This document shows positions 1 through 680 of a DNA stretch of 680 nt, piece after piece. A program made the translations under genes and the position numbers. The notes under the pieces were generated by a model. That model was not told the DNA's origin, did no database searches, and saw only the letters and a list, made by a program, of their open reading frames with translations. Each line of letters starts with the position of its first letter. Position 1 is the first letter of the stretch. Where the stretch lies: NCBI RefSeq assembly GCF_003334385.1, contig NZ_QOWN01000151.1, one strand, 5' to 3'. The DNA comes from Escherichia coli (GTDB taxonomy: Bacteria > Pseudomonadota > Gammaproteobacteria > Enterobacterales > Enterobacteriaceae).

Positions 1-680
1 CTGAAACGTATTTTGCCTGGTAACGGGCGTCATCAAGTGCATTATGGCGCTCACCTTCGAATGGAATAGCCGTTCTGGCATCGAAGTCTATGGCTTTCCC
101 CAGCTCAACGATTGTGCGTACATCGCGATCGTTGTAGTAACGCCACGGGCAGGGGATCCCCTGCCGTTCGTATGAACGGCGCAAAATCGTGTTGTCGAAG
201 TTGGCTCCATTTCCCCAAACCTGAACAAAAAATTCACCGGAGTTTTCGTCGATAAATTCCCGCAATTGTAACAGTGCATCATCTAACGGGATTTCATCGG
301 TCATAATGGCAGATTGCGCTTCGCGTGATTGCTTAAGCCACCATTTAATGGTGTCCCGATCAATGACTCCGCCAGCAGTTTCCAGATCGATAGTCTTACT
401 AAATTCCGGTCCCATATCTCCGGTTTGCGGATCGAAAAATATTGCACCTATTGAGATGATCGGGGCATCAGGATTTTTTCCCATGGTTTCAAGGTCGATC
501 ATTAGATGGTCACACGTCCTGCTGGTGGATGTGATTTCTTGATGACCGTTCACCTTAATTGAGTGATCTGCCGTCTCGCCAGTTTCATTATCGCTATCGT
601 GATGCTGATTGCCGCCAGTGTTCTCCTTGTGTGGATGTTCAGCGCCTTCCATTTCCTCCGGATCATCTTCCTGAACTTCA
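1..680 (-). CDS. Internal fragment (no start or stop in window) of a DnaQ-like DEDDh 3'-5' exonuclease domain protein, preceded by an acidic His-rich linker; possibly part of a prophage RecE/exodeoxyribonuclease VIII-like multi-domain nuclease
   Basis: Seen in sequence: the minus-strand frame with codons 302-304, 299-301 etc. has no stop codon from 679 to 2 (about 226 codons), against roughly 10 stops expected by chance. Translation contains Exo I LMIDLETMG followed by a hydrophobic strand PIISIGAIFFD, Exo II VWGNGANFDNTIL, and Exo III ERHNALDDARYQAKYV, matching the order and spacing of DEDDh exonucleases. The RecE-like attribution is from recalled domain architectures and is unverified. Confidence 0.85.
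2..508 (-). other. DEDDh 3'-5' exonuclease catalytic domain, truncated at its C-terminal side by the window edge
   Basis: Predicted catalytic residues: Exo I Asp at 494-496 and Glu at 488-490 (IDLET); Exo II Asp at 194-196 (ANFD); Exo III His at 44-46 and Asp at 29-31 (HNALDD). A His in Exo III defines the DEDDh rather than the DEDDy subgroup. Motif I to II spacing is about 100 residues and II to III about 50, typical for the fold. Confidence 0.75.
148..165. repeat. Perfect 18-bp palindrome ggcaggggatcccctgcc, centred on GGATCC/GATC, inside the coding sequence
   Basis: Seen in sequence: positions 148-165 equal their own reverse complement; symmetry breaks at 147/166. It encodes RQGIPCPW in the main minus-strand frame. 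It can be read as a 7-bp GC-rich stem (ggcaggg/ccctgcc) with a gatc loop. Confidence 0.9.
521..679 (-). other. Acidic, His-rich low-complexity segment, probably a disordered inter-domain linker N-terminal to the exonuclease domain
   Basis: Translation EVQEDDPEEMEGAEHPHKENTGGNQHHDSDNETGETADHSIKVNGHQEITSTSRT is dominated by E, D, H, G, T and N, has no hydrophobic core pattern, and is in frame and continuous with the exonuclease domain. Confidence 0.6.

Follow-up and report, generated by a model that had tools for sequence, protein, structure and literature searches.

A perfect 18-bp palindrome inside an Escherichia coli prophage exonuclease gene, very probably a coincidence of codon choice

The perfect 18-bp palindrome GGCAGGGGATCCCCTGCC, found at positions 148-165 of a 680-nt stretch of Escherichia coli DNA (the whole of which is called the window hereafter), is a real sequence but an ordinary one. 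It is very probably a coincidence of codon choice in the gene that contains it, and we infer that it has no function of its own. According to the evidence, selection does not maintain the symmetry. Set against the defining features tested for terminators, conserved RNA elements, operators and dispersed repeats, the palindrome falls short in each case, and it is not a real functional feature. In an earlier interpretation made from the letters alone, the sequence-only reading, several functional options had been listed next to a coincidence of encoding the peptide GIPCPW, and this last option is the sole one to survive, given the variation among alleles and the absence of other copies in the surrounding 40.7 kb. 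That reading thus stands for the placement, the hairpin geometry and the coincidence, and falls for the functional options, since homologous alleles were found that keep the peptide while breaking the palindrome at synonymous sites, and no further copies of the motif were found in the surrounding genome. None of the rival explanations considered below has positive evidence beyond the symmetry itself, a neighbouring near-palindrome and a modest folding z-score.

Position, symmetry and coding of the palindrome

Both a repeat finder and a direct check against the reverse complement confirmed the palindrome at 148-165 as first described, i.e. as a segment equal to its own reverse complement and composed of two 9-base arms, 100% complementary and with zero spacer. 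It is not extendable, the flanks C147 and G166 failing to pair onward. On the minus strand, the codons across it are CGG CAG GGG ATC CCC TGC CCG, which read R Q G I P C P and are followed by W; the palindrome itself spans the last two bases of CGG (Arg), the complete codons CAG (Gln), GGG (Gly), ATC (Ile), CCC (Pro) and TGC (Cys), and the first base of CCG (Pro). The sequence-only reading was right about the peptide GIPCPW and about the location in an exonuclease coding sequence, as seen from the minus-strand frame and from matches to PF16473 and to PHROG families. Its description of the centre as GATC within GGATCC was also borne out, this GATC standing at window 155-158 and being, as any GATC of E. 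coli is, a site for Dam methylation.

Immediately alongside, at window 163-180, lies the near-palindrome GCCGTTCGTATGAACGGC, which is made of 7-bp arms around a 4-nt centre and codes, in the minus-strand frame, for (R)RSYER. It has GCC in common with the first palindrome, and the two centres are 15 bp apart; its RNA hairpin is predicted at -10.5 kcal/mol. In alleles where the Tyr codon is TAT, this neighbour becomes the perfect 18-bp palindrome GCCGTTCATATGAACGGC (25 loci), so that two perfect 18-mers overlap in such alleles. In Evi-like alleles and in others the neighbour is broken, and the one double change that keeps a pair (locus L304) does not rise above shuffle controls. The rough post-hoc chance of meeting a neighbour of such quality is 0.4-4%.

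The host gene and its prophage setting

The window (positions 1-680, minus strand) lies wholly within the coding sequence for a prophage exonuclease, a protein of ~813-823 aa encoded by a lambdoid prophage. The minus-strand frame, uninterrupted by stop codons through the 680 bases, reads ...RRSYERQGIPCPWRYYNDRDVRTIVELGK... As this frame extends past the window on either side, the real gene is absent from the mechanically produced list of open reading frames. It belongs to a known, annotated family (PF16473, DEDDh). In Pfam, the Rv2179c-like 3'-5' exonuclease domain PF16473, of the DEDDh type, is matched with an E-value of 1.3e-66 over model positions 2-174 of 177 by residues 58-226 of the window translation (window 2-508, minus strand), and a weak second match is to RNase_T (PF00929, E 7.7e-5). 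The window translation also matches PHROG exonuclease families with E-values down to 1e-142, and the closest solved structure by sequence is PDB 8kel, an 'Exodeoxyribonuclease', a weak match at E 5e-8. MIDLET, WGNGANFD and HNALDDA are visible in the window translation and fit D-x-E, D and H-x4-D; MIDLET, GNGANFD and HNALDDA are presumably the DEDDh motifs I, II and III, an assignment in keeping with what is known of the superfamily. Judged by these sequence matches, the C-terminal domain of the gene is classified as a DEDDh Rv2179c-like 3'-5' exonuclease. Among phages, the relatives of the PF16473 domain include exonucleases of the T4 DexA type, to which the strong HMM match to the family and the visible catalytic motifs liken it; tblastn returned more than 1200 phage records with relatives of the exonuclease domain, dexA genes included. 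Unlike in these relatives, the domain here forms the C-terminal end of a protein of ~820 aa.

The gene is often annotated as 'exodeoxyribonuclease VIII'. The domain is directly preceded by an acidic, His-rich linker, EVQEDDPEEMEGAEHPHKENTGGNQHHDSDNETGE..., which is encoded by window 565-680, the first 116 nt in the sense direction; over these 116 nt, the DNA is 84.6% identical to recE of the Rac prophage. While the upstream sequence is thus shared with Rac RecE, the catalytic domain is of the DEDDh 3'-5' type and not RecE's own nuclease domain. Since it is the upstream part that is shared with RecE, the 'exodeoxyribonuclease VIII' label probably reflects this part rather than the catalytic domain, and is probably misleading.

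The window is 100% identical to positions 1488006-1488685 of E. coli 118UI (NZ_CP032515.1), in gene WP_113344110.1, which codes for an 'exonuclease' of 823 aa and whose 3' part the window forms. In this genome, the genes follow one another as dicB, a DUF1482 gene, the exonuclease, excisionase, integrase and ompW; a lambdoid prophage has integrated at ompW, and the locus is its early-left arm. Phage vB_EcoS-640R1 shows the same gene arrangement. The palindrome sits within the C-terminal exonuclease domain, upstream of xis-int, ~190 nt before the stop codon and ~250 nt before xis. Of 5426 complete E. coli genomes, 4053 have the gene (counting places that cover at least 80% of the window), in up to 8 places per genome, and the copies add up to roughly 9,900.

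Variation among alleles

The conservation of the palindrome was assessed on a set of loci gathered blind to it, by whole-window BLAST and by four protein-based scans that used as queries the window domain and three divergent alleles. This set comprised 284 loci, reduced to 105 distinct coding segments that were aligned by codon. Another 120 IMG/VR loci (L089-L208), retrieved with the 18-mer itself, were left out of all conservation counts because they had been chosen on the palindrome and are biased in its favour.

The 18-mer is intact in 69 of the 105 alleles and broken in the other 36. Exactly RQGIPCPW is encoded by 84 alleles, 15 of which break the palindrome by synonymous changes alone, namely as CGA-CAG-GGT (9 alleles), CGA-CAG-GGA (2), CGA-CAG-GGG (2), CGG-CAG-GGA (1) and CGG-CAG-GGT (1). 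Nearly every combination at these two sites, 6 bp apart, is therefore represented, which implies that mutation occurred independently several times. In other clades, the peptide itself is altered (RQE, RLD, RLN, RLG or HLD), in the left arm only. Among the 105 alleles, no compensating change in the other arm was found, the right arm ATCCCCTGCC never being altered so as to restore pairing. As to whether the palindrome is kept at synonymous positions while the protein is conserved, the check proposed by the sequence-only reading, the answer is no: the 15 same-peptide breakers out of 84 are uncompensated.

The two arms also differ in their synonymous diversity. In the left arm, it reaches 0.44 and 0.30 for the Arg and Gly codons, respectively, against a domain mean of 0.166, and the two third positions concerned rank among the most variable of the domain; the left arm thus evolves faster than average, which is the opposite of constraint. 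In the right arm, synonymous diversity is 0 to 0.04. This arm is contained in the stretch of lowest synonymous diversity of the domain, 13 codons reading IPCPWRYYNDRDV (window 119-157, minus strand), which continues ~30 nt beyond it; in the 10-codon window IPCPWRYYND, synonymous diversity is 0.051, against the same domain mean. The IPCPWRYYNDRDV stretch is also the protein segment best conserved with respect to distant relatives, identity peaking there. As a separate observation, it is near-identical as DNA even between alleles that are only ~72% identical as proteins, and it may serve as a homology anchor for mosaic exchange or be under constraint at the nucleotide level.

Codon choice as the best explanation

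The palindrome, then, is best accounted for as a by-product of the commonest allele, in which the codons CGG-CAG-GGG-ATC-CCC-TGC-C encode RQGIPCP and would yield the symmetry incidentally. The right arm (ATC CCC TGC C) would be fixed by the protein and by the local sequence conservation, as a part of IPCPWRYYNDRDV, and the left arm (GG CAG GGG), in a variable stretch, would happen to mirror it in one successful lineage. The transcript could form a 7-bp hairpin, and the central GATC would be Dam-methylated like any other, neither bearing a sign of selection. The palindrome looks frequent only because its allele has spread through E. coli prophages.

Regarding probability, the sequence-only reading had put the chance of such a palindrome at about 0.003 per window, and this figure is right for random sequence and for a single window: the analytic value is 663 x 4^-9 = 0.0025, and 80 of 40,000 shuffled windows contained such a palindrome, i.e. 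0.002 (0.2%). When the same protein was re-coded with the gene's own codon usage, a palindrome of at least 18 bp arose in 597 of 40,000 cases (1.5%), a protein-preserving null that is six times more permissive. Across ~549 kb of non-redundant prophage DNA, ~6-7 distinct palindromes of at least 18 bp were counted, that is one per ~80-90 kb or about 1 window in 120. The permissive re-coding null, the commonness of palindromes in prophages and the fact that many windows and many kinds of features were scanned together remove the significance, and a palindrome at 4^-9 in one window is to be expected by chance many times in a genome-wide scan. For this exact palindrome given the peptide, the probability is ~0.0009, and the codons CGG, GGG and CCC that it requires are minority codons in the gene.

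Compared with the short palindromes that occur by chance in bacterial and phage coding sequences, the present one is alike in being single-copy, located in an open reading frame, built of 9-base arms, of comparable frequency and unconserved at synonymous sites; it differs in needing the three minority codons and in having the hairpin-forming neighbour at 163-180. These two features, along with a folding z-score of -2.8 for a 78-nt segment, are the points that speak against coincidence. The palindrome is best used as a calibration case, in which the number of copies in databases reflects the spread of one allele and not the conservation of a motif.

RNA structure and transcriptional signals

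A first alternative is an allele-specific mRNA structure, in which the palindrome hairpin and the RSYER hairpin, arranged as a three-way junction in the leftward early transcript, would slow ribosomes, block 3' exonucleases or make a processing site, thereby tuning the exonuclease or xis-int. We regard it as highly unlikely. The hairpin with 7 pairs and a GAUC loop announced by the sequence-only reading is indeed predicted as stated, the isolated RNA hairpin of the palindrome folding at -13.4 kcal/mol; both it and the neighbour's hairpin are stable, and the location ahead of the stop codon and of xis would suit such a role. Moreover, a small three-way junction is the predicted fold of the 78-nt sense mRNA segment, for which z = -2.8, only 1 of 200 shuffles being as good (the antisense segment gives z = -1.9). 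Against this, natural variants weaken the stem to -7.3 kcal/mol (GGT allele) or even to -0.6 kcal/mol (Evi-type allele) while the gene is kept, and translating ribosomes unwind stems of such size.

The comparison of alleles also speaks against this alternative. When pairs of the three-way-junction minimum-free-energy fold of the 78-nt segment were counted on 31 distinct alleles, 0 of the 7 pairs of the palindrome helix had changed on both sides; all departures were by unpaired cells only, every change in the stem destroying a pair. Over the same 31 alleles, all whole-structure measures fell inside the shuffle distribution (the covariation score, for example, is equalled or exceeded by 210 of 500 shuffles), and the RNAalifold consensus omits the palindrome hairpin and keeps none of the three-way-junction fold. 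In Rfam, no family matches the whole window at E up to 1. The absence of compensatory pairs, the RNAalifold omission and the lack of an Rfam match tell against a conserved cis-acting RNA structure, and the proposal of an mRNA structure affecting translation or stability was not sustained, its pairs being lost across alleles in an uncompensated manner.

A Rho-independent terminator was also considered and rejected: the flanks are CGTGGCG (sense) and GTTCGTA (antisense), with no U/T run, and the scan of the window detected neither a terminator-like site at 148-165, no T-run following the palindrome on either strand, nor a promoter-like site anywhere. The palindrome resembles intrinsic terminators, protective stem-loops and the retroregulation sites of the lambda sib type in its GC-rich 7-bp stem, its 4-nt loop and a transcript running toward xis-int. 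It differs from them in having no U-run on either strand, in lying within a translated open reading frame, in being unconserved and in being far shorter than an RNase III substrate. The sole terminator-like match of the window lies elsewhere, at 513-533 on the plus strand, antisense to the gene, with a 7-pair stem followed by ATTTCTTGAT; one such match compares with 0.7 expected in shuffles and is thus not a raised count.

Two abutting palindromes in the dominant allele

The variation seen in other alleles leaves room for a function confined to the dominant one. There, the abutting palindromes at 148-165 and 163-180 might form a lineage-specific element, either an RNA processing or stability signal of the early-left transcript, placed just ahead of xis-int, or a protein site for a dimer of dimers that tunes excision, which would have aided the spread of the allele. 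We hold this to be very improbable indeed. If the palindrome at 148-165 did have a function, a regulatory or structural signal would be contained in the coding part of one of the commonest E. coli prophage genes, a short way ahead of the excision genes.

Protein binding and dispersed repeats

Among the readings with the least probability is a double-stranded DNA site for a dimeric phage or host protein, operator-like and perhaps acting together with the neighbour, the perfect dyad symmetry over 18 bp and a second (near-)palindrome centred exactly 15 bp away being what recommends it. The site, however, is inside a coding sequence and not near a promoter, and it is unconserved among orthologous prophages that have the same neighbouring genes (36 of 105 alleles broken). 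In the 40.7 kb scanned of the 100%-identical source genome, no other copy was found within 4 mismatches of the 18-mer, and, leaving aside the two halves of the palindrome itself, 11 half-sites (at most 1 mismatch) were counted where 8.7 were expected. The 12.7-kb locus L001, likewise scanned for mismatched copies and half-sites, gave the same picture. The further copies of the 18-mer or of its half-site in the surrounding genome that the sequence-only reading had suggested looking for are therefore lacking within 4 mismatches or at chance level over these 40.7 kb. The 18-mer was not found in the literature searched, and, to our knowledge, it bears no resemblance to the sites of LexA, CRP, FNR, Cra or PurR. 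An unconserved and unrepeated sequence with no promoter does not bear out a binding site for a dimeric protein.

With phage repressor operators and with REP/BIME elements, the palindrome shares a perfect dyad symmetry. It differs from both in being neither intergenic nor repeated, in showing no enrichment of half-sites and in being unconserved between prophages that share the regulatory region. A dispersed palindromic repeat of the REP/BIME kind was rejected in its own right, the 18-mer being single-copy per locus, per contig and per 40.7 kb, and not extragenic.

The central GATC

Equally remote is a target of methylation or restriction that would serve regulation or defence, whether through the Dam site GATC or through the BamHI-type site GGATCC. 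Both motifs do stand at the centre, and the window shows a mild excess of GATC, 9 sites (at window 127, 155, 358, 385, 430, 458, 497, 565 and 661) against 5.0 +/- 2.0 expected from dinucleotide-preserving shuffles. This excess is marginal even with multiple testing left uncorrected, at least 9 sites being reached by 9 of 200 shuffles. A single GATC is uninformative, since Dam methylates all of them, and BamHI-type systems are not, as far as we know, generally present in E. coli. Many alleles, having GGT, GGA, GAC or AAC at the Gly/Asp codon, lack the central GATC, and this loss tells against a restriction or methylation target.

Mosaicism and recombination

The gene is strongly mosaic, its identity to the allele of the window switching between ~45-70% and 97-100% in blocks of 50-200 nt (in L005, L006, L297, L328 and others), so that a single gene tree is invalid for this locus. 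This mosaicism, and the passage of several alleles from ~75% to 97-100% identity near the palindrome, lend some appeal to a DNA cruciform or recombination hot spot, by which the palindrome would extrude or stall replication and so promote mosaic exchange in the gene; its probability is nonetheless minimal. The jumps in identity track the IPCPWRYYNDRDV stretch and not the centre of the palindrome, L297, for instance, staying divergent for ~30 nt beyond, and an 18-bp GC-rich palindrome devoid of an AT-rich centre is too short to extrude readily under physiological supercoiling or to be cleaved by SbcCD. The cruciform put forward in the sequence-only reading did not survive. Similarly, a recombination junction at the very centre was rejected on the identity tracks, whose breakpoints are scattered around the conserved stretch.

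A cloning or linker artefact stemming from the central BamHI site is rejected, the sequence being present in thousands of independent natural genomes.

Occurrence in other genomes

In IMG/VR, the exact 18-mer has at least 120 matches, and all of those listed are in the same gene, with one copy per locus. Where an E. coli genome holds multiple copies, these arise only from several prophages that carry the gene. A survey of 100,044 species genomes (one each) returned the 18-mer 28 times, always as a single copy per contig. Unrelated taxa and contexts account for 26 of these matches and the exonuclease gene for the remaining 2, one in E. albertii and the other in a contig binned as Lachnospiraceae.

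The latter contig (L422, SFGN01000167.1, 3934 bases of a Lachnospiraceae metagenome-assembled genome) encodes at 2489-2995 the enterobacterial prophage exonuclease domain with 87.6% protein identity, in which both 18-bp palindromes are perfect. It is probably a mis-binned contig of an Enterobacteriaceae or a phage.

In unrelated genomes, the 18-mer is found within longer palindromes or ahead of T-runs (L405, 6672-6689; L413, 2502-2519; L407, 9269-9286; L428, 2662-2679; L431, 3387-3404), and in L405, L413 and L407 it takes the form of a terminator-like stem followed by a T-run. From its letters, the 18-mer looks able to serve elsewhere as a generic GC hairpin, with the look of a terminator stem in these unrelated genomes.
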